Virus record (IMG/VR): IMGVR_UViG_3300045284_000273
DNA: 64,000 nt
DNA from: an uncultured virus (IMG/VR IMGVR_UViG_3300045284_000273)
Taxonomy: Duplodnaviria > Heunggongvirae > Uroviricota > Caudoviricetes
Direction: 5' to 3' (one strand)
Shown here in pieces: positions 20,458-52,213 of this stretch. The stretch's first letter is position 1. Each line of letters begins with the position of its first letter. Under the pieces are notes generated by a model. It was not told the DNA's origin and did no database searches. It saw only the letters and a list, made by a program, of their open reading frames with translations. The position numbers and the translations under genes are program-made.

Positions 20458-20757
20458 ATGAGCGTTGCCGACCTACAAGAACGTGAGGTCGAGAACCTGA
20501 TCCGGGTGTCAGCGACGACTCCTCCACAAGCAGTTGCCAACTCGATCTTCAAGGTCATCTTCGAGCAGCAGACCATGCCGATCATCCGCGCTATCGGAGC
20601 CGGAGCGGTGTGTCAAGCGTGCAAAGGCATCGCCATAGCGCGCGGTCTGGTGGCCACCAGAGGGCGCGATCTCGCCACCACTGTCGGTTTCGACACGATC
20701 AAGGGCAACTCGGGAACCGACATCAGCGCGCAGACCTTCCACCTCTTCCTGAGGTAG
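20458..20757 (+). CDS. spoVS: SpoVS-like (Alba-fold) nucleic-acid-binding protein
   Basis: IRVSATTPPQAVANSI...IRAIGAGAVCQACKGIAIARG closely follows the SpoVS pattern (AIGAGALNQAVKAVAIARG). Confidence 0.8.
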   Translation: MSVADLQEREVENLIRVSATTPPQAVANSIFKVIFEQQTMPIIRAIGAGAVCQACKGIAIARGLVATRGRDLATTVGFDTIKGNSGTDISAQTFHLFLR

Positions 20758-20760
20758 GCC

Positions 20761-21660
20761 ATGGGTCGCTTCACTGGCGTCTTCCGAGGTAAGGCAGTGC
20801 AGGTCAACGGCCTGTCGATCACCGCCTTCGTGCCCCAGGTGTACGGCGAGCAGCCCATCGTGGTCAGCGACTTCATCGGAGACGTTCCGGCCGACCCCGG
20901 CATGGGTTGGGTCCTGTTCCAAGCAGGCAATCCTGAGTTCCCGGTGTGGATCGGCAAGCTCGCCAGCGCTGGTGATGGTGGTGGCACTGGCGGCGGCACC
21001 AACGAGGTTTGGATCGGTCCCAACGACCCGATCCCAGCCAACCCGACCATCGAGTTGTGGTACGACGAGGACGAGACACCAGGCGGCGGCCTGCTTCCTC
21101 CCGGTGGCACGGCAGGACAGGTACTGACCAAGAACACAGCCACTGATTTCGACACTGGTTGGAGTACGCCGGTATCGCTGATCATGAGTGGCACGGAGGC
21201 TGCCAAGCCAGGGGTTCCTTCGCCGGGCACTCAGTACTTTGCCCTCAACACCTGGCGTCAATGGCTCTTCGATGGTACCGGCTGGATCATCATGGAAGAG
21301 CCGGTCCAGACCAGCTTTAACTCGGTCATCGGTGCGACCACAGGCACTATCACAACAGTGGGAGCCAAGACGTTCAACTACCGTCGATCGAACGGCAGTT
21401 GCTTCTGGGACGCCGACGTGACCATCACCACTGTTGGCACGGCTGCTGGCTTGCTCACCATGACGCTGCCGTTCGCCGTCCCTGCTGGCACAGCCTTCAT
21501 CGGCAACGGTCGTGAAGACGCCTCGACTGGCAACCTGCTGCAGGTCAAGGCCACCGGAACGACGGCCAGCGTGGGCACCTACAACAATGCTTTCCCAGGA
21601 GGCAATGGTATGCACCTGATCATGAGCGGTCGCTACCGGATGCTGACGGGGTACTCCTGA
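20761..21660 (+). CDS. Baseplate spike-like OB-fold (gp5/gpV-type) fused to a fibre domain
   Basis: FTGVFRG...VPQVYG...GWVLFQAGNPEFPVWIG resembles the gpV/gp5 OB-fold; followed by a WYD module, LPPGGTAGQVLTK and a beta-rich tip. Confidence 0.6.
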   Translation: MGRFTGVFRGKAVQVNGLSITAFVPQVYGEQPIVVSDFIGDVPADPGMGWVLFQAGNPEFPVWIGKLASAGDGGGTGGGTNEVWIGPNDPIPANPTIELWYDEDETPGGGLLPPGGTAGQVLTKNTATDFDTGWSTPVSLIMSGTEAAKPGVPSPGTQYFALNTWRQWLFDGTGWIIMEEPVQTSFNSVIGATTGTITTVGAKTFNYRRSNGSCFWDADVTITTVGTAAGLLTMTLPFAVPAGTAFIGNGREDASTGNLLQVKATGTTASVGTYNNAFPGGNGMHLIMSGRYRMLTGYS

Positions 21661-21923
21661 TGGGCGTTCTCAAGGCACGCGTCGGCGGCATCTGGGTTCC
21701 TGTCGGAGCAGGGCAGGACGAACAGGCCCAGGCATACCGTCATATCCAGACCACACCGGCCACCGTGTGGAACATCGACCACGGCCTCAGCTTCTACCCC
21801 CATGTGACAGTCGTTGACTCATCGCATCGCGAAGTGTTCCCCGACCACATCGACTTCCCATCCGCAACGACTGTCGTCGTGACCTTCACCGCCTCTGTCG
21901 GCGGCGAGGCGTATCTCTCCTAG
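21660..21923 (+). CDS. Small tail-associated protein
   Basis: MGVLKARVGGIWV N-terminus; HIQTTPATVWNIDHGL..PHVTVVD. Confidence 0.65.
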   Translation: MGVLKARVGGIWVPVGAGQDEQAQAYRHIQTTPATVWNIDHGLSFYPHVTVVDSSHREVFPDHIDFPSATTVVVTFTASVGGEAYLS

Positions 21924-21931
21924 GGGGCACC

Positions 21932-23164
21932 ATGGCTGTCTATTACGGCGTCATCGACCTGTCGAAGAACGAGCTTCGTAACGCAGCGATCCACAACCTG
22001 CCAGCGGCTCCGAGCGCTCCGGTCAAAGGTCAGGTGTACTTCGACACCACCACCAATGTTCTCTACTGGTGGAACGGCGCGGTGTGGGTTGCGGCTCAGG
22101 CCAGTGCACCGGCCACCACTGTCACCACGCAAGCGATCGGTGATGCACCTGTTGTCGGGGTGGGTCCCAACTTCGCTCGTGAAGACCACAAGCACGGCAT
22201 GCCCGCCTTCGGGGCGATCACCACTGAGACGACGTTCGGAACTGCATCCGGCAACGGCGTTGCTGCCACACTCGCTCGTTCCGATCACACACACGGCAAC
22301 CCGGTCCACGATGCGACGGCGCACGCCACCATCCCGCTGTCGGCGCTGGCCGCAGCGACCGGCCCCGTCAACATCGGCAGCCAACGCCTGGTCAATGTTG
22401 CCGATCCTGTCTCGGCTACCGATGGTGCCAACAAGCAGTACGTGGACAACGCCATCGCCGGTCTGTCGTGGAAGGACTCGGTGCGTTGTGCCTCGACCGG
22501 CAACCTCGGCCTGACCGGCCTCGCTGCCGTTGATGGTGTCACACCAAGCGCCAACGATCGCGTGCTCGTTAAGAACCAGACCACTCCGGCGCAGAACGGC
22601 ATCTATCTCGCCCAATCCGGCGCGTGGACCAGAGCACTCGACGCCGACGCTGCCAACGAGCTTGAAGGCATGGCCGTCTTCGTCAATGAGGGCACGGTCA
22701 ACGCCGACACATCATGGGTGTGCACCGCCAACGCACCGATCACCGTTGGAACCACTGCTCTGCCCTTCTCCCAGTTCCAAGGCAGCGGCACCTACAACGC
22801 TGGCGCAGGCCTGGTCCAGAACGCCAACGCCTTCGACGTGGTTGCTGGTGATACCAGCCTGACGGTGAGCGCTGATGCCGTCATCGTCAACACTGCCGTC
22901 ATCGCCACTCGGGCCTACGTGGATACGGCGGTTACAGGGGTCACCAAGAAGTTCGCCGCCGCACTCACCGGCACCATTGCCTATGCCACCGGCGAGGTGG
23001 TCACCCACAACCTGAACACACGCGACGTGGATGTGTCGGTGGTCAACGGCAACAGTCCGTGGGCCGCTATCGGAGTGGACTGGGAAGCCACCTCGCTCAA
23101 CACCGTGACGATCCGCTACAACCCGAACATCGGTGCCGGGTATCGAGCCGTGGTGATCGGCTGA
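21932..23164 (+). CDS. Tail fibre / structural protein
   Basis: GQVYFDTTTNVLYWWNG, AREDHKH, DGANKQYVD, RVLVKNQTTPAQNGIY fibre motifs. Confidence 0.75.
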   Translation: MAVYYGVIDLSKNELRNAAIHNLPAAPSAPVKGQVYFDTTTNVLYWWNGAVWVAAQASAPATTVTTQAIGDAPVVGVGPNFAREDHKHGMPAFGAITTETTFGTASGNGVAATLARSDHTHGNPVHDATAHATIPLSALAAATGPVNIGSQRLVNVADPVSATDGANKQYVDNAIAGLSWKDSVRCASTGNLGLTGLAAVDGVTPSANDRVLVKNQTTPAQNGIYLAQSGAWTRALDADAANELEGMAVFVNEGTVNADTSWVCTANAPITVGTTALPFSQFQGSGTYNAGAGLVQNANAFDVVAGDTSLTVSADAVIVNTAVIATRAYVDTAVTGVTKKFAAALTGTIAYATGEVVTHNLNTRDVDVSVVNGNSPWAAIGVDWEATSLNTVTIRYNPNIGAGYRAVVIG

Positions 23165-23165
23165 G

Positions 23166-24074
23166 ATGCCTCGTTCATTCGGCACCACCAACTCTGCGCC
23201 GTATGCCAGCGCGCCTGCAGTTGGTCCTGCCGGTGACACCTACTTCAACACCACCAACAAGATTCTGTACGTCTCGGATGGGACCACTTGGAATGATGCC
23301 GGAGGCTCAGGCAACGAGGTCACCGTCGCGCCTGACGATCCGATACCGACGTATCCGAACACCGAACTGTGGTATGACACGGACGCCCCGGCGAGTGTGG
23401 CCCCCGGTGCCGGTGTGCCTGCCGGAACCATCGCCCAGACCATCTGCGTGGTCGCCCCGACCGGCTGGCTGTTCCTCGACGGCTCGGTCATCACCAACGG
23501 GCAGACTCTCTACCCCAACCTGTGGAGTGTGATACCAGCGGCTTGGAAGAGCGGTGCCAACATCATCTTCCCCAACGCCAGCGGTCGTGCGTTGGCGTGT
23601 GCAGGTTCCGGAGCAGGGCTGACCGCCAGGGCACTCGCTGCCACGGTCGGTACAGAGACGGTGCAACTGACCGCCGCCGAGTCGGGGATGCCCGCGCACA
23701 CTCCGACCGCTTCGTCCACCAGCGTCAACATCGACCACAACCATGGGGCCTCTTCGGGCTTCCAGAATGCCGCTCACCAGCACGGTCCTTCGACTGGCGG
23801 TTTGTTCTGGGCGAACATCGGCGGTGGGTCGTTGACGGGTATCGACATTGGCGATGCTGTTTCCGGTGGTTCCAGTTACCTAGCGCACATCTCGCAAGGC
23901 GGGACAACGGCGAGCGAGAACGCCAACCACGCTCACGGCATCACTGTGAACTCGACATCGGGACTGGCACACAGCCACCCGATTACCGTCAACCAGGTGG
24001 CAGCGGTCGGTGCATCAGCGGCACACAACAACATGCAACCATCCATCTTCTTCAATGTGATGATCAAGACGTGA
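23166..24074 (+). CDS. Tail fibre protein with collar domain
   Basis: PAGTI...APTGWLFLDG...YPNL collar domain; HxH repeats; AHNNMQP. Confidence 0.8.
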   Translation: MPRSFGTTNSAPYASAPAVGPAGDTYFNTTNKILYVSDGTTWNDAGGSGNEVTVAPDDPIPTYPNTELWYDTDAPASVAPGAGVPAGTIAQTICVVAPTGWLFLDGSVITNGQTLYPNLWSVIPAAWKSGANIIFPNASGRALACAGSGAGLTARALAATVGTETVQLTAAESGMPAHTPTASSTSVNIDHNHGASSGFQNAAHQHGPSTGGLFWANIGGGSLTGIDIGDAVSGGSSYLAHISQGGTTASENANHAHGITVNSTSGLAHSHPITVNQVAAVGASAAHNNMQPSIFFNVMIKT

Positions 24075-24081
24075 GGTACTG

Positions 24082-24930
24082 ATGGGAGTCCTACGAGCAC
24101 GCGTTGGTGGCACCTGGGTGGACATCGCTGGCAGCAACGATGAGGTCTACGTCGGTCCCGATACGCCGGTCGATACCGTGACCGAACTGTGGTATGACAC
24201 CGATGAGACCGGCCCGCTGACACCACCATCGGCAGGGATGCTCAAGGCCAAGGTCGGTGGTACATGGGTGCCGGTGGCTGCAGCAGGCAGCGGTGGGGGC
24301 AGTGATGAAGTCTCCATCAGCGCTACCGATCCGATCGGCACTGCTCCGACGACCGAGTTGTGGTATGACACTGACGACGTGATGAGCGGCGCGCCGATGA
24401 ACCGGCAACTGTGTACATCAACGACTCGTCCTGTTGGCTATGACGGCTTGGAAATCTACGAGAGTGATACCAAGCGGGCCTACATTCATAACGGGATCAG
24501 TTGGGTGCTCAGCTTCGCCCCACCGTCCGAGCGCGTCTACGGTAAGACATTCGCCCCAGGCTCAACCCTCTCGGCAGGTACGGGCGGCGGTTATACCGAC
24601 TGGATGACACTCGACGCCGCAGTGCCGGTGCCGGTGTGGGCAACACGTTTCCGGTTCATGGTCAATGTCACCTATCTGCTCTTCGCCACGGCAGGTGGCA
24701 ACATCTACGGCGTGCGACTTGCTCTTGGTACGGCGTTCAGCACTGGGTTCAACTTCGATGACGCCAGCAAGAGTCACTTCGACCTGGCGTTCAACGAGAT
24801 TCTGAGCACTGTCAACCCTGGCACCAATCAGTCGCTGCGTGTGCAAGCGAACCGAGTTGGCGGTACTGGCACCTGGTCTGCTGGTACCTTTGGCACGACT
24901 GTTGGTATCACAATAGATTGGTTGCCGTAA
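24082..24930 (+). CDS. Tail fibre / receptor-binding protein
   Basis: MGVLRARVGGTWV; two ELWYDTD modules; beta-rich C-terminus. Confidence 0.7.
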   Translation: MGVLRARVGGTWVDIAGSNDEVYVGPDTPVDTVTELWYDTDETGPLTPPSAGMLKAKVGGTWVPVAAAGSGGGSDEVSISATDPIGTAPTTELWYDTDDVMSGAPMNRQLCTSTTRPVGYDGLEIYESDTKRAYIHNGISWVLSFAPPSERVYGKTFAPGSTLSAGTGGGYTDWMTLDAAVPVPVWATRFRFMVNVTYLLFATAGGNIYGVRLALGTAFSTGFNFDDASKSHFDLAFNEILSTVNPGTNQSLRVQANRVGGTGTWSAGTFGTTVGITIDWLP

Positions 24931-26162
24931 TGGGAGTCCTCCGAGCCAGAGTCGGTGGTGCATGGGTCGATATCGGTGGCGACCGCGACCAGGTATGGGT
25001 CAACCCCAGCGCTCCGACCGACCCCAACATTGAGTTGTGGTACGACACCGACGCACCGAGCCTGCTCGCCCCGGCGGTCTACGCCGGTCGCAACCTGCTC
25101 AACAACGGCCAGATGGCCGTCAACCAACGACAGGTCACCTCGGTCGCCGCCCTCACTTCCAACGTTCCTGCTGCTGATCGGCATTGGATTCAGAACAACG
25201 GCATCGGCACCATCGCCTGTTCTTACGTCCAGAACATCCCGGCCAACTTCAGTGTTGAAGTGCCAGCAGGACGGCCACGGCCCGGTCAGATTCAATACCT
25301 CTCGGTGGCCACCGCCGAAGCGGCGGGAGCCTTGGCAGCGGGCGATTACTTGCGTTGGCAGCAGGCCATCGAGGGCATCAATCTGCAACATCTCGGGTGG
25401 GGGACTCCGCAGGCACAACCAGTGACGGTGAGCTTCGATGTCTACTCCAGCGTCGCGAGCACCTTCGTCGCAGAGTTGTACCGCATCGAGACTCAGGCCC
25501 GCCATTCCGCGCAGACGTTCACTGTCGTCGCGGGTTTCCAAACGGTGACGATGACCTTCCCCGGTGACCAGACCACATTGGTCACCAACGACAGTGGTGC
25601 ACGACTGTACCTGTTCATCTATCTCGGTGCCGGATCGAACCTGACCAGTGCAGCGCTGTCGCTGCCATGGCGCAACTTCGTGGCCGGAGCCGAAGCAACC
25701 GGGGTGTCCAACAACTGGGCAGCGGGGGCGGGCAGCGTCTTCGCGCTCACCAATATGCAGCTTGAGGTTGGCGCTGCGGCCACGCCGTACGAGGTTCGCT
25801 CCATCAGCGACGAACTGCGCGACTGCCAACGGTACTTCGAGCGGATCGGCTCCACCTTGGAGGCGGTCACACCGTTCGGTGTCGGGATGAACTACAACAC
25901 CAACACTTGTGTCGCGGTGGTTCCTTTCCTTGTCCGCAAGCGAGTCATCCCTACGGTCACCTATGCCGCCGCAGCGCTGTTCTCGCTGTACACCTCGGCA
26001 GGTGCAGTCGTCGCCCTCAACTCGATCACGACGCACTCGGGAGGCACGACGGCAGTGTTGGTGACGTGCGGGACCAACGCCACCCAGGTCGCCGGTGATG
26101 CGACGATCCTGCGCGGCAACAACAACACCTCAGCATTCATCGACGTGTCGGCGGAAATCTGA
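24930..26162 (+). CDS. Tail fibre / receptor-binding protein (CBM-like)
   Basis: Start ATG 24930 (TAATG overlap); GRNLLNNGQMAVNQR...QLEVG..ATPYE...EL..CQRYF. Confidence 0.75.
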   Translation: MGVLRARVGGAWVDIGGDRDQVWVNPSAPTDPNIELWYDTDAPSLLAPAVYAGRNLLNNGQMAVNQRQVTSVAALTSNVPAADRHWIQNNGIGTIACSYVQNIPANFSVEVPAGRPRPGQIQYLSVATAEAAGALAAGDYLRWQQAIEGINLQHLGWGTPQAQPVTVSFDVYSSVASTFVAELYRIETQARHSAQTFTVVAGFQTVTMTFPGDQTTLVTNDSGARLYLFIYLGAGSNLTSAALSLPWRNFVAGAEATGVSNNWAAGAGSVFALTNMQLEVGAAATPYEVRSISDELRDCQRYFERIGSTLEAVTPFGVGMNYNTNTCVAVVPFLVRKRVIPTVTYAAAALFSLYTSAGAVVALNSITTHSGGTTAVLVTCGTNATQVAGDATILRGNNNTSAFIDVSAEI

Positions 26163-26854
26163 TGGGCGTCCTACGAGTCAAGGTTGGTGGCAACTGGGTA
26201 GACATTGGCGGGAGCAACGACCCCCTCTGGGTCGATCCCCTTGCCCCATCCGATCCGAACTACGAACTGTGGTATGACACTGGTGCTTCCAGCATGATCA
26301 GTTCGGCAGGGTCAGGACCGGAAGCGTCTCGGCCAGCAGCCAGCACGCTGACGAGCGGCCTCCATTACTTTGCCACCGACACCGGGCGAGAGTTTGTGTG
26401 CGATGGCACCGGCTGGATATGCCTGTATGAGCCGCTGCAGACCTACGCCCCGGCGACTACCAACATCAGTTTCGGTGCTTCGACCACCATCGGCGGCAAG
26501 TACGTCCGCAGAGCAGGACGATGTATTGGCAAGATTCTCTTCTACATGGGAGCGTCAGGGACAGCGGCAGTGATGGGCACTGGGCCGTTGCTTGGAGTTC
26601 CGTTCCCACCCGCCACCGATCTGGGGTTCAACGATTCCGATGGTGGCAACTCGGTGATGATCTACGACGCCACCGGCCCGAGGTTCTACGGGACCACGTA
26701 CCAGTCGGGCAGCAACCTCGGCATCCAAGCCCTTACCGTCAGCGGCACGGCTGTGATCGGCAGCACTGTTACGGCCAGCGTGCCGATGGTCTGGGCCTTC
26801 GGTGACTACATGTTCGTGAAGTTCGACTATCTGATGAACACGCCGTACCTATGA
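26162..26854 (+). CDS. Tail fibre / receptor-binding protein
   Basis: MGVLRVKVGGNWV; C-terminal part paralogous to 20761 (SGxEAxxP...YFA..T......DGTGWI...EP). Confidence 0.7.
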   Translation: MGVLRVKVGGNWVDIGGSNDPLWVDPLAPSDPNYELWYDTGASSMISSAGSGPEASRPAASTLTSGLHYFATDTGREFVCDGTGWICLYEPLQTYAPATTNISFGASTTIGGKYVRRAGRCIGKILFYMGASGTAAVMGTGPLLGVPFPPATDLGFNDSDGGNSVMIYDATGPRFYGTTYQSGSNLGIQALTVSGTAVIGSTVTASVPMVWAFGDYMFVKFDYLMNTPYL

Positions 26855-26864
26855 GGATGATCTG

Positions 26865-28007
26865 ATGGGCGTCTTACGAGTCAAAGTTGCTGGGCAATGG
26901 GTTGACGTAGCCGCCAGCGCGATCGTTCCCGGTCGCAACAAGGCAGACAACGGGGCGATGAACATTGCTCAGCGCGGCCTCACAGCGTTGACAGGTGTTG
27001 CTACCGATAGCGGTCAGCGCTTCGTTGATCGACACGCCTTCCGTAACTCCGCCTTGGGTGCAATGACATACCAGACCCAGGTCGATGGGCCACCCAACAC
27101 CGGGATCATGCAGTGCTTTGAAGTGGTGGTCACCACTGCTGATGGCGCTCCGGCAGCAGGTGACTACGGCATCTTCGCTCACGCTTTGGAGGGCCTGAAC
27201 GTTCAGGACTTCTTGTGGGGCACATCCAACGCTTTGCCGATCACAGTGTCGTGGTATCAGAAGACCAACTACCTCGGGCCGTTCATCGCTGAGATATTCC
27301 GCAACGACGCAGCACAGCGTTCAATAGCGGCTGTTGTTTCGGCGAACACCACGTCGGGAGTGTGGCAACGGCGTTCTGTCACCTTCCCCGGTGATGTCAC
27401 CGGAGTGATCACCAATGACAGTGCTGCCCGCGTGATCTTCAACCTGTTCTGTGGAGCCGGTTCGACGTACACAGGTGGCTCTTCGCTGCAGAATACCTGG
27501 GCAGCAACGGTCAACAACCAGCGCGCCTTCGGTGTCGGCAACTTGGCAGCGACCCTCAACAACTACTTGCGCATCACCGGGTTGCAGATCGAGATCGGAG
27601 CGAACGCTTCTCCGTTTGAGATGCGGCACTTTGCCGACGATCTGGCGCGCTGTCAGCGCTATGCGTTCTACCCCGGCTACAACGTGCCGACCGGGAACTA
27701 CGTCCACTGCGGCGCTGGGCAGGGTGTGAGTACTGCATCGACAGTGATGACTCATCAGTTCCCGGTGACGATGCGGGCCATCCCAACGCTGGACATGAAC
27801 TTCACTGCCTTCGCCAACTACTCATGTCACGATCGTGTCGGTGCCGCCGGGGCTTGTACGAACATCACTGCCGATGTCAACATGACGCCGACAACAGGAG
27901 CCGTGACGACTGCCAACACGGCGGCGTCGATGGTCGCCAACCGTCCGTACCACTTGCTCAAGAACTCAGGGCAAGTTGGGTGCCTCGGATGGAGCGCTGA
28001 TATCTGA
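26865..28007 (+). CDS. Tail fibre / receptor-binding protein (paralog of 24930)
   Basis: GRNKADNGAMNIAQRG, EGLNVQ...WGT, TFPGD...TNDS, QIEIG...CQRY. Confidence 0.75.
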   Translation: MGVLRVKVAGQWVDVAASAIVPGRNKADNGAMNIAQRGLTALTGVATDSGQRFVDRHAFRNSALGAMTYQTQVDGPPNTGIMQCFEVVVTTADGAPAAGDYGIFAHALEGLNVQDFLWGTSNALPITVSWYQKTNYLGPFIAEIFRNDAAQRSIAAVVSANTTSGVWQRRSVTFPGDVTGVITNDSAARVIFNLFCGAGSTYTGGSSLQNTWAATVNNQRAFGVGNLAATLNNYLRITGLQIEIGANASPFEMRHFADDLARCQRYAFYPGYNVPTGNYVHCGAGQGVSTASTVMTHQFPVTMRAIPTLDMNFTAFANYSCHDRVGAAGACTNITADVNMTPTTGAVTTANTAASMVANRPYHLLKNSGQVGCLGWSADI

Positions 28008-35831: not shown

Positions 35832-37205
35832 ATGCAACTGTTCTTCGCCGGGGCTGAGTCCCAGTCACATCTCGATCTGCTCCGGTCCTGTGGGGTCGAG
35901 CGCGTCGCCGTGTCGATCGCCAATCTGGCCAGACACACCCGTGATTACGCCGTGTGGGCCGGGAAAGGGCATCTGAAGGGCCTGGACTACCTGATCTACG
36001 CCGACAGCCCCACCGTGCCCGTTGGGCCGCTCTTGGAGCTTCTGGCAGGCTCTCCGAGCGAACCAGAGGGAGTTGCCGGACCTGCTGAGTGGGCAACCGA
36101 GTCGTGGCTCAACGACAGCGACATCCTGTTCCTGCCAATGTGGGACGGACACGATGCAGGCGAACTACGCCACCTGGTCGAGATGTACGACGGGGTAGTG
36201 CTCCCCGACGCCGTGGTGGACAACCAAGCCGCCGTCCGGCAGGCAAAGGCGGCTATGGGCAGAATGTCAACCTTCGGGGCGCTGACCGGCCGATCCAAGG
36301 GTGTCGATCGCTTCGACCTGTTGGTGTCGAGTGCTTGGTACGCCGTTCAGAAACACGGCGAAACCCAGGTATGGGTTGGCAACCGATTGGTGCGCCTCAA
36401 CTCCGACGACAAGCACCTCAAGCGCCAGCGCTACGCCGAGGCGATCGAAGCGATGGGCGCTGATGTGTCAGCAGTGCTCGCTGACGATCCCAAGGAGACG
36501 GCGCGCCTGGCGATCATGTCGTGGATCGCGATGGAGAAGTACCTCAGCGCAGGGCACTCGATGGTCCCGGCCACAGTTGCTAACGGCGGTATGACGAGAA
36601 CCAATCCTCAAGCACCTCGATCTCCGGAAGTTGCTAACGGAGCGTTGGAGACCCGGCACGAATCGACGCGCGCTCTGCCGGTGATGGCCTTCCAGAGCTT
36701 CGCCGTGACGCTGCAGGACGAAGAGGGCAACGAGACGGTCGAGCACCACCAACTGATCGAGTCGGCTGCCGAGTCGATGCGTCAATGTGATACCTGCCAA
36801 CTCTCTGCGGCCTGTCCCGGCTTCCAGCAGGGCGCGGCGTGCACATACCACATTCCGGTAGTGATCCGTACCAAGGACCAGCGCCAAGCGCTGTTGCGGA
36901 CGCTGATCGAAATCCAGGCTCAACGCATCTTGATGGGGTCGTTCTCCGAGCAGGTGCTGGGTGAGCCGAACGATCAGGTCGGCAAGGAGATGGATCGGCT
37001 GTTCACGATGGTCGAGCGTTGGAAGACGATCGAAGAGCAGACCACCAAACTCTCGATCGGCATCCAGGCGACCGGCCCCGACGCCGATGGCAGCCTGGGG
37101 ATGATCAGCCGCCTGTTCGGCTCACAGGCCGGTCAGAACGCCCGCATGCTGGACGTTCCAGTACTGTCGGACGAAGTGATCGAAGAGGCCGTCCCCGTCG
37201 ATTAG
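35832..37205 (+). CDS. TGT/DpdA-like barrel protein with a C-terminal Cys cluster (tentative)
   Basis: MQLFFAG, IYADS, FLPMW, SSAW...HG spacing recalls phage tRNA-guanine-transglycosylase-like proteins; CDTC..AACP..C. Confidence 0.4.
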   Translation: MQLFFAGAESQSHLDLLRSCGVERVAVSIANLARHTRDYAVWAGKGHLKGLDYLIYADSPTVPVGPLLELLAGSPSEPEGVAGPAEWATESWLNDSDILFLPMWDGHDAGELRHLVEMYDGVVLPDAVVDNQAAVRQAKAAMGRMSTFGALTGRSKGVDRFDLLVSSAWYAVQKHGETQVWVGNRLVRLNSDDKHLKRQRYAEAIEAMGADVSAVLADDPKETARLAIMSWIAMEKYLSAGHSMVPATVANGGMTRTNPQAPRSPEVANGALETRHESTRALPVMAFQSFAVTLQDEEGNETVEHHQLIESAAESMRQCDTCQLSAACPGFQQGAACTYHIPVVIRTKDQRQALLRTLIEIQAQRILMGSFSEQVLGEPNDQVGKEMDRLFTMVERWKTIEEQTTKLSIGIQATGPDADGSLGMISRLFGSQAGQNARMLDVPVLSDEVIEEAVPVD

Positions 37206-51364: not shown

Positions 51365-52213
51365 ATGACCGCAATCGCACTCGCTGAGCAGCCCACCAGG
51401 GCCACCACCAGTTTCACGCTGGCCTGGGGACTGGTCAGCATCAACGTCTCAGCCTTCACCGGCACCGAGCAGACCCGCGTCGCTCGCTCCGAGTTCACCG
51501 ACGTGGACGGCACGCTCATCGCTGTCGGCCGTGCGCCGATCCGCAAGGACACCGGCGAGGTCGTGGACACAGCCGACGTGCTGCGCTACGCGCTCACCGA
51601 TCACAACGAGTGGGTGCTGCTCACCGATGACGAGATTGCCGCCTGCACCAGCCCCAAGGGCGTGGCTGAGATTGTCAGCTTCGTCCCGGCCAAGAGCGTC
51701 GGCCAGTATCTCACTGAGACGCAGTACCAGGTGCGGCCCAAGTCCAGCAAGGGCAAGGTCGAACCGGCTGCTGACCGCGCGTTCGCGCTGCTCACTCAGG
51801 CCATGAAGTCCCGCAAGGTGCTGGCACTGGTCAAGGTGGCGCTGCGAGGCCCTGCCCGCTACGCGCTGCTCGATCACGACGGCACGCTGACGATGCTCTA
51901 CACCGCCGACGCGATCCGCCAGGCCCGCCCCGGCTGCAGCGAGTACAAGTTCAGCAAGGATGAACTGGCCCTCGCTGGCAACCTGATCGACGCTGTGGGC
52001 GTTGACGCTCCGACCATCGTGGACGACACTGCGCCAGTGGTGCAGGCGTTCGTCAACTCCAAGGCCACCGGCAAGGTCGTTGCACCTGTCGAGGCTCCGC
52101 TGCCCACCATCGACCTGGCTGCCGCCCTGAACGCGTCCATCGACGCCGCCAAGGCTGCCAAGACCAAGGCCGCAGTCAAGGTTGCGAACAAGGCTCTCAA
52201 GGGCGTGGCGTGA
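51365..52213 (+). CDS. ku: Ku-like DNA end-binding protein
   Basis: TSFTLAWGLVSINV, LLTDDEI, YQVRP, AFALLTQAM, ELALAGNLID, IDLAAALNASI match the prokaryotic Ku pattern. Confidence 0.8.
   Translation: MTAIALAEQPTRATTSFTLAWGLVSINVSAFTGTEQTRVARSEFTDVDGTLIAVGRAPIRKDTGEVVDTADVLRYALTDHNEWVLLTDDEIAACTSPKGVAEIVSFVPAKSVGQYLTETQYQVRPKSSKGKVEPAADRAFALLTQAMKSRKVLALVKVALRGPARYALLDHDGTLTMLYTADAIRQARPGCSEYKFSKDELALAGNLIDAVGVDAPTIVDDTAPVVQAFVNSKATGKVVAPVEAPLPTIDLAAALNASIDAAKAAKTKAAVKVANKALKGVA

Follow-up and report, generated by a model that had tools for sequence, protein, structure and literature searches.

A repeat split between neighbouring fibre genes of an uncultured virus and its probable role in joining their products

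We analysed the first 64,000 nucleotides (hereafter, the window) of the uncultured virus IMGVR_UViG_3300045284_000273, a complete 117,491-base record with direct terminal repeats, in which replication genes surround a cluster of eight fibre genes, designated here by their start positions. In this cluster, a four-strand repeat appears to be split across genes: its first half (A, ending in ELWYD) lies open in one gene, and its second half (B, the first 15 residues) begins the next gene. We consider it probable that the N-terminal B hairpin of each protein completes the open A half of the upstream protein, resulting in a chain in gene order. The feature is real and widespread, and the sequences strongly support pairing between the products of neighbouring genes. 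A broader reading, in which a single adsorption organ, ordered and branched, is built from the products of all eight genes on the baseplate spike, with two reusable types of link (one of them the coded split repeat) and with tips added by cassette insertion, is offered as a tentative possibility.

The split module had been described in an earlier note on this DNA, and a six-frame scan combined with a check of open reading frames (ORFs) found all eight ORFs and all halves exactly where they had been placed, with one correction: the second A half of 24082 reads SATDP, and not P.DP. The six A halves are located at residues 81-104 of 20761, 50-73 of 23166, 20-41 and 75-98 of 24082, 20-41 of 24930, and 20-41 of 26162; the six B halves are residues 1-15 of 21660, 24082, 24930, 26162 and 26865, as well as residues 51-65 of 24082. 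Every open A half is in a gene directly upstream of a gene starting with B, and 21660 and 26865 contain no A half. The six-frame scan of the window revealed no halves beyond these twelve, a profile scan of the whole 117.5 kb genome gave no further strong match to A or B, and neither motif was matched in 2,000 shuffles of the 2,400 residues. In addition, an intact-looking module follows the open A half in 20761, 24082 and 26162. Intact units, in which B follows A, were found in 3,648 representative proteins (profile search, E 0.001), often in tandem and with up to 23 matched stretches per protein. The junction between B and A in the window genes is the ordinary junction between tandem repeats; therefore, these genes are cut inside a repeat.

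Scans for related loci yielded 120 loci including that of the window (67 after removal of duplicates), with 330 matches to the A profile, 203 matches to the B profile, and none on the minus strand. The layout of an A-only gene, followed by genes with both B and A and then by a B-only gene, recurs in related phage contigs. There are 110 strict B starts, of which 84 directly follow an open-A gene; the other 26 were sorted by eye into pattern noise (4), B starts cut off by the end of the contig (8), a missed A (1), inserted genes (7), and B starts after a gene without an open A (6). Among the informative B starts, 85 of 98 adjoin an upstream open-A gene, and a detected B comes next in 82 of the 109 open-A genes that have downstream context. 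The chains are 2-5 genes long, carry at least 20 different body families and, where complete, start without B and end without A in 23 of 29 cases. They occur beside structural genes that we take to be of the myo-, sipho- and podo-types.

The main evidence for pairing in trans comes from covariation between neighbouring genes. The rule was framed on 17 loci and relates the residue after the tryptophan of A to the residue two positions before the leucine of B; nested duplicate starts and five noise rows were removed before counting. All 84 trans links, from 49 loci, follow it: 63 are aromatic:Gly and 21 are V/I/L:non-Gly, with no exceptions (p=3e-20). Conversely, there is no association between B and the A half of the same gene (52 pairs, 26/21/3/2, p=1), and the 41 genes that have both an upstream A and their own A fit the rule 41 times in trans, compared to 22 times in cis. 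The rule holds separately for first links (43) and later links (41), it is significant upon shuffling inside 15 mixed loci (P=3e-6), and all 37 links from the 27 loci that were unseen when it was framed fit as well, although the profiles had been trained on all loci. The two key sites are the top mutual-information pair (Z 21). A second covarying pair was detected inside the 63 Tyr:Gly links (Ile/Val in A and Ala/Val in B; Z 10.1, compared to a shuffled 95th percentile of 5.0), and the five window links are compatible with it. The overall similarity of B halves is correlated with that of upstream A halves (rho 0.32, or 0.26 without the key sites), compared to 0.04 for the A halves of the same genes, even though the own A is approximately 20 residues away from B, whereas the upstream A is more than 130 residues before the stop of its gene in 71 of the 84 links. 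The proposal of the earlier note that the halves pair in trans is thus supported by the A(n)-B(n+1) covariation.

It should be noted that several observations weigh against an ordered chain formed by direct contact of the two halves. The five window links are all Tyr:Gly; therefore, this code alone cannot order them, and the strict order of the two chains drawn by the earlier note (20761 > 21660 and 23166 > 24082 > 24930 > 26162 > 26865) does not follow from it. Adjacency, which that note had stated as a rule, is strong in relatives but not absolute: the last two groups of B starts above amount to 13 of 98 that do not adjoin an open A, 27 of the 109 open-A genes have no detected B next (10 of these 27 lack an adjacent B and end in another domain, H, described below, and several others are detection misses), and in 13 genes two or more A halves seem to be open. 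The system is optional, since in 79 loci found via 21932 no A half reaches the profile threshold (this search for new loci gave 88 loci, and the 7 with A halves are contigs already in the set). No A or B matches were found in a selection of genes surrounding the 21932 homologues of four cultured phages (Schomber, Catera, I3 and Trina). Adherence to the residue rule is loose in intact modules with long loops, where Gly accompanies the aromatic residue in 18 of 41 cases and the aliphatic residue in 3 of 14. The loci are related by descent, the tree of links rests on approximately 36 columns, and a crossover inside the B-A repeat carries A(n), the body and B(n+1) together and can yield part of the trans signal. 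Finally, the best fold matches of the module are weak (Z 2.2-3.1: collagen XV/XVIII trimerisation domains, crAss001 chain 7qof_l, and P68 chain 6q3g_HS). Intact modules as an independent proof of the residue rule or of the contact were rejected due to their loose adherence to it.

Four other explanations were considered. Trans pairing could lack a strict order, with proteins carrying both halves polymerising with themselves, or with any B filling any A of the same class, so that gene order is a rough guide; this is unlikely, albeit the strongest of the four. The uniform Tyr:Gly type of the window links and their nearly identical B halves are consistent with it, some loci have extra open A halves or a B after B-only genes, and the neck fibre of phage A-1(L) contains approximately 14 copies of one trimer (PMC10966104). 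However, within Tyr:Gly links B tracks the upstream A (rho 0.275) over the own A (0.095), the second covarying pair points in the same direction, and B mismatches its own A in 19 of the 41 genes with both halves, which would block self-polymerisation. Another explanation is co-inheritance alone: recombination in the B-A repeat would shuffle cassettes of A(n), body and B(n+1), while the halves do not touch. Because the repeat has one key site at either end, every crossover within it separates the cis pair but leaves the trans pair together, and the loose adherence of intact modules to the rule fits as well; such recombination probably contributes to the overall similarity correlation. It does not explain the whole trans signal. 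The pairing state changes at least 10 times on the weak link tree (shuffled mean 18.9), and both states are found in 4 of 20 body families without a mismatch. In the cassettes of loci L091 and L103, the bodies are 81% identical, yet both key sites differ together; in L023 and L066, Ile/Val is present in the A that precedes a Pro-type B, whereas the matching L012 gene has Tyr; and in nine links A is at the very C-terminus, with no body to be carried along. Co-inheritance would also leave both halves without a function, and we regard it as improbable.

The two remaining explanations place A and B in the same chain or the same homotrimer. If B joined the A of its own chain or homotrimer, the module would be circularly permuted; B and A are approximately five residues apart in the genes that have both, and geometry alone would permit this. 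Such cis pairing is, however, largely refuted by the absence of cis association and by the chain ends, where the A-only and B-only genes would have no partner, and the ordinary tandem-repeat junction between B and A also argues against it; we consider it very improbable. Fusion of neighbours by readthrough or frameshifting has in its favour that 54 of the 84 junctions are one-base stop-start overlaps and that nine links have a C-terminal A. It was rejected as hardly credible, with A far from the stop in the 71 links mentioned above, which include all five of the window, and with gaps of -1, 10, 12 and 13 bases in the links with C-terminal A, which share no common frame.

In the assembly that we favour, that is, pairing of B with the A of the upstream protein, the trimer encoded upstream would offer three open A halves, each completed by one of the three B hairpins of the downstream trimer, the direct contact presumably being strand complementation. 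The C-terminal body of the upstream protein would swing aside on a linker of approximately 10 residues as a side branch, and these bodies would bind receptors. Packing of Tyr over Gly is common in beta-sheet pairing. The order is probably determined in part by the pairing residues; another part would come from coupled translation where genes overlap, which could help where the code is the same because the majority of junctions (54 of 84) are stop-start overlaps. More tentatively, the eight proteins would form one chain rooted on the baseplate-spike homologue 20761. The trimeric state is suggested by the spike, collar and collagen domains that these proteins also carry, together with the weak matches to small trimerisation and head-fibre domains. 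A monomer model of 24082(1-103) has short beta strands in each half (pLDDT 79.7, pTM 0.49), and a prediction of the complex of three 23166(1-80) and three 24082(1-103) chains scored 0.33, 0.26 and 0.25 against a mark of 0.32 and, without controls, is evidence neither way. When the sequence of the module was searched against solved structures, no significant match was obtained; at E 0.001, Foldseek likewise returned none from PDB or BFVD (the BFVD list consists mostly of phage fibre proteins with weak scores), and tblastn against 50,697 phage records gave no match. Mtd_N (PF18454) was matched by one of 28 intact modules, that of 23166, at E 0.014, below significance.

Several loci show variants of the layout. 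In a large cluster (L038:2835-16900), two A halves are open in the same gene and several B starts are non-adjacent; counted by eye, A and B balance at approximately 7 each, which suggests true branch points. At L066:8930-9331, an HNH-like gene is inserted between an open-A gene and its B partner, and the Tyr:Gly match is kept across the insertion. Outside the window, in the same genome (G000:C1:92484-94339), an A-like motif at the end of gene 92484 and three B-like repeats at the start of gene 93431, which overlaps it, form a second apparent split pair, as if one chain capped a trimer with three hairpins. In L019/L020, a collagen gene has an A-like motif at its end, and the gene after it has three B-like repeats at its own end.

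A second type of link may involve the C-terminal domain of approximately 65 residues (H) in which both 21660 and 21932 end. H closes 99 distinct genes: in 62 cases the next gene begins with one of a few related N-terminal peptides, in 32 it does not match the patterns, and in 5 there is none. Seen from the other side, all of the genes that begin with one of the two main peptides (44 of 44) come after an H gene. The model of H aligns with residues 187-249 of CBA120 TSP4 (Z 5.4, rmsd 2.0, 55 residues aligned), although other beta-sandwiches score alike (Z 4-6.7); these residues are described as the XD2 docking domain (PMC8825819). A Foldseek search for 21660 gave no match. The C-terminus of 21660 is probably a docking domain rather than a receptor tip, as far as the predicted model indicates, and we tentatively propose that docking of H with the next N-terminal peptide joins 21660 > 21932 > 23166; conserved gene order could be another cause of this pattern. 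If the link is real, 21660 is an adaptor and the two chains are one eight-gene chain. Two claims of the earlier note are not supported: that each chain has its own receptor-binding tip, since the C-terminal part of 21660 is a small beta-sandwich similar to a docking domain, and that the chains are separate, since the second type of link probably joins them. In relatives P0007-P0009, the N-terminus of 20761, A and H are fused in one protein without B. Elsewhere, three consecutive genes after an H-domain gene share a similar short N-terminal peptide (L131:7655-10598, Mycobacterium phage Catera gp236-238), and in L143:8218-9641 and L158:8236-10439 an intact module lies at the end of a short gene, and the next gene begins with a different conserved unit, a possible third type of link.

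The location of the chain on the virion was also considered. Residues 1-72 of 20761 are similar to clusters of PF04717 (Phage_base_V, gpV/gp5) with TM 0.77-0.80, both sides being predicted models; Pfam matches to Phage_base_V are weak (E 0.03-0.1) and were obtained for 3 of 14 members of the 20761 family, across which the C-terminal bodies vary. The predicted baseplate-spike OB domain at the N-terminus of 20761 points to the tail tip. Conversely, 21932 matches a 'head decoration' family and the PDB entry 9NX3, 'capsid decoration protein'. The assignment to the tail made by the earlier note is thus supported by one gene and not by another, and we consider a tail location slightly favoured. A region at approximately 95-110 kb, with putative sheath, tube, hub and wedge genes recognised by inspection of their sequences, is presumably the contractile-tail module; its hub-like gene abuts a wedge-like gene, with no spike gene in between. 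The spike OB domain of 20761 is encoded approximately 80 kb away from this tail module, which apparently has no spike gene of its own. Among cultured phages, those of Gordonia, Rhodococcus and Mycobacterium carry the nearest homologues of 21932, a hint that the host is an actinobacterium. Coordinates of the features are given in Table 1.

Table 1. Genes and sequence elements of the fibre cluster (positions in the window)
Feature	Coordinates	Strand	Description
Gene 20761 (299 aa)	20761..21660	+	gpV/gp5-like OB domain, open A, intact-like module, C-terminal body; likely chain root
Phage_base_V OB domain of 20761, aa 1-72	20761..20976	+	Predicted-model match and weak Pfam match
Open A half (socket) in 20761	21001..21072	+	Motif scan
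Gene 21660 (87 aa)	21660..21923	+	N-terminal B and C-terminal H domain; likely adaptor
B half (plug) of 21660	21660..21704	+	Motif scan
H domain of 21660	21729..21920	+	Small beta-sandwich, candidate second docking-domain type
Gene 21932 (410 aa)	21932..23164	+	N-terminal peptide, intact module (22001-22087), fibre body, C-terminal H domain (22946-23161)
Gene 23166 (302 aa)	23166..24074	+	N-terminal peptide, intact module (23199-23291), open A, tail-collar domain
Open A half in 23166	23313..23384	+	Motif scan
Gene 24082 (282 aa)	24082..24930	+	B, intact A-linker-B, open A, body
B half of 24082	24082..24126	+	Motif scan
Intact module of 24082: A, 10-residue linker, B in one chain	24139..24276	+	
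Open A half in 24082	24304..24375	+	Motif scan
Gene 24930 (410 aa)	24930..26162	+	B (24930-24974), open A (24987-25052), tail-fibre-like body (phrog_4492)
Gene 26162 (230 aa)	26162..26854	+	B (26162-26206), open A (26219-26284), intact-like module, body
Gene 26865 (380 aa)	26865..28007	+	Only B (26865-26909), tail-fibre-like body (phrog_4492); chain end

Other genes of the window include a SpoVS-family gene immediately upstream of the fibre cluster (20458-20757), a queuine tRNA-ribosyltransferase-like gene (35832-37205), and a Ku-like DNA end-binding gene (51365-52213).

If the proposed pairing is true, tips could be gained and exchanged in these uncultured phages through the insertion of a cassette, which the pairing would explain, and it provides a small coded connector for joining protein trimers in a set order, made from a repeat of approximately 40 residues that was seemingly halved and reused as a general coupler. 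An important advantage of the covariation at two sites is that the pairing is testable with recombinant proteins and two point changes, without phage culture. Chained or branched phage fibres are already known, and what is new here is the split repeat, seemingly reused as a coded coupler; we found no description of a split module or a coded split-repeat coupler in a literature search that covered few subscription papers.

In known branched receptor-binding systems of phages, secondary proteins dock on dedicated hub domains, usually through one or a few links. A parallel to the proposed pairing is donor-strand complementation in chaperone-usher pili, where each subunit has an N-terminal extension that fills in the fold of the preceding one and contributes to the order; however, these bacterial appendages have an Ig fold, monomeric subunits, a chaperone and an usher, and the similarity is an analogy only. 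The Mtd_N, collagen XV/XVIII, crAss001 and P68 modules are beta modules of approximately 40 residues, like the A-B repeat, with matches below significance, and we know of no report of Mtd_N-type or other small trimeric fibre modules split between genes. The neck fibre of the Anabaena phage A-1(L), gp82-gp81(x14)-gp80, is a chain of trimers built by consecutive genes of one operon, as is proposed here, although it consists of linear beads, mostly of one repeated protein, with no split repeat and no side bodies (PMC10966104). In comparison with this bead chain, assembly of the fibre cluster in gene order via N-terminal hairpins may hold, with support from the trans covariation. Homology between the two systems was rejected: no A or B motif is visible in gp80-82, and the profile comparison with the bead domain (gp81/gp82C) gave a probability of 0.1%. 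In CBA120 TSP4 (XD2/XD3) and T4 gp10, where linkers break the three-fold symmetry (PMC8825819), and in the hyperbranched fibres of phiKp24 (PMC9700779), several trimeric receptor-binding proteins are likewise joined via flexible linkers; the difference is that a hub protein bears whole docking domains, and the available parts of these two papers describe no split-repeat strand complementation. In the branched receptor-binding system of Klebsiella phage KP32, the short N-terminal peptide of the downstream protein docks on the upstream protein (gp37/gp38; PMC13352976), a plug for which the likely counterpart here is B, an N-terminal peptide conserved in five window genes and approximately 100 related genes. 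The KP32 socket is a complete T4 gp10-like domain that serves one link between two proteins, whereas the A half, a two-strand half repeat of approximately 22 residues, is not a complete XD2/XD3 beta-jellyroll of the kind expected in T4 gp10-like branched systems (KP32, CBA120, G7C); the socket would here be half a repeat and the plug its other half, reused up to four times in a row.

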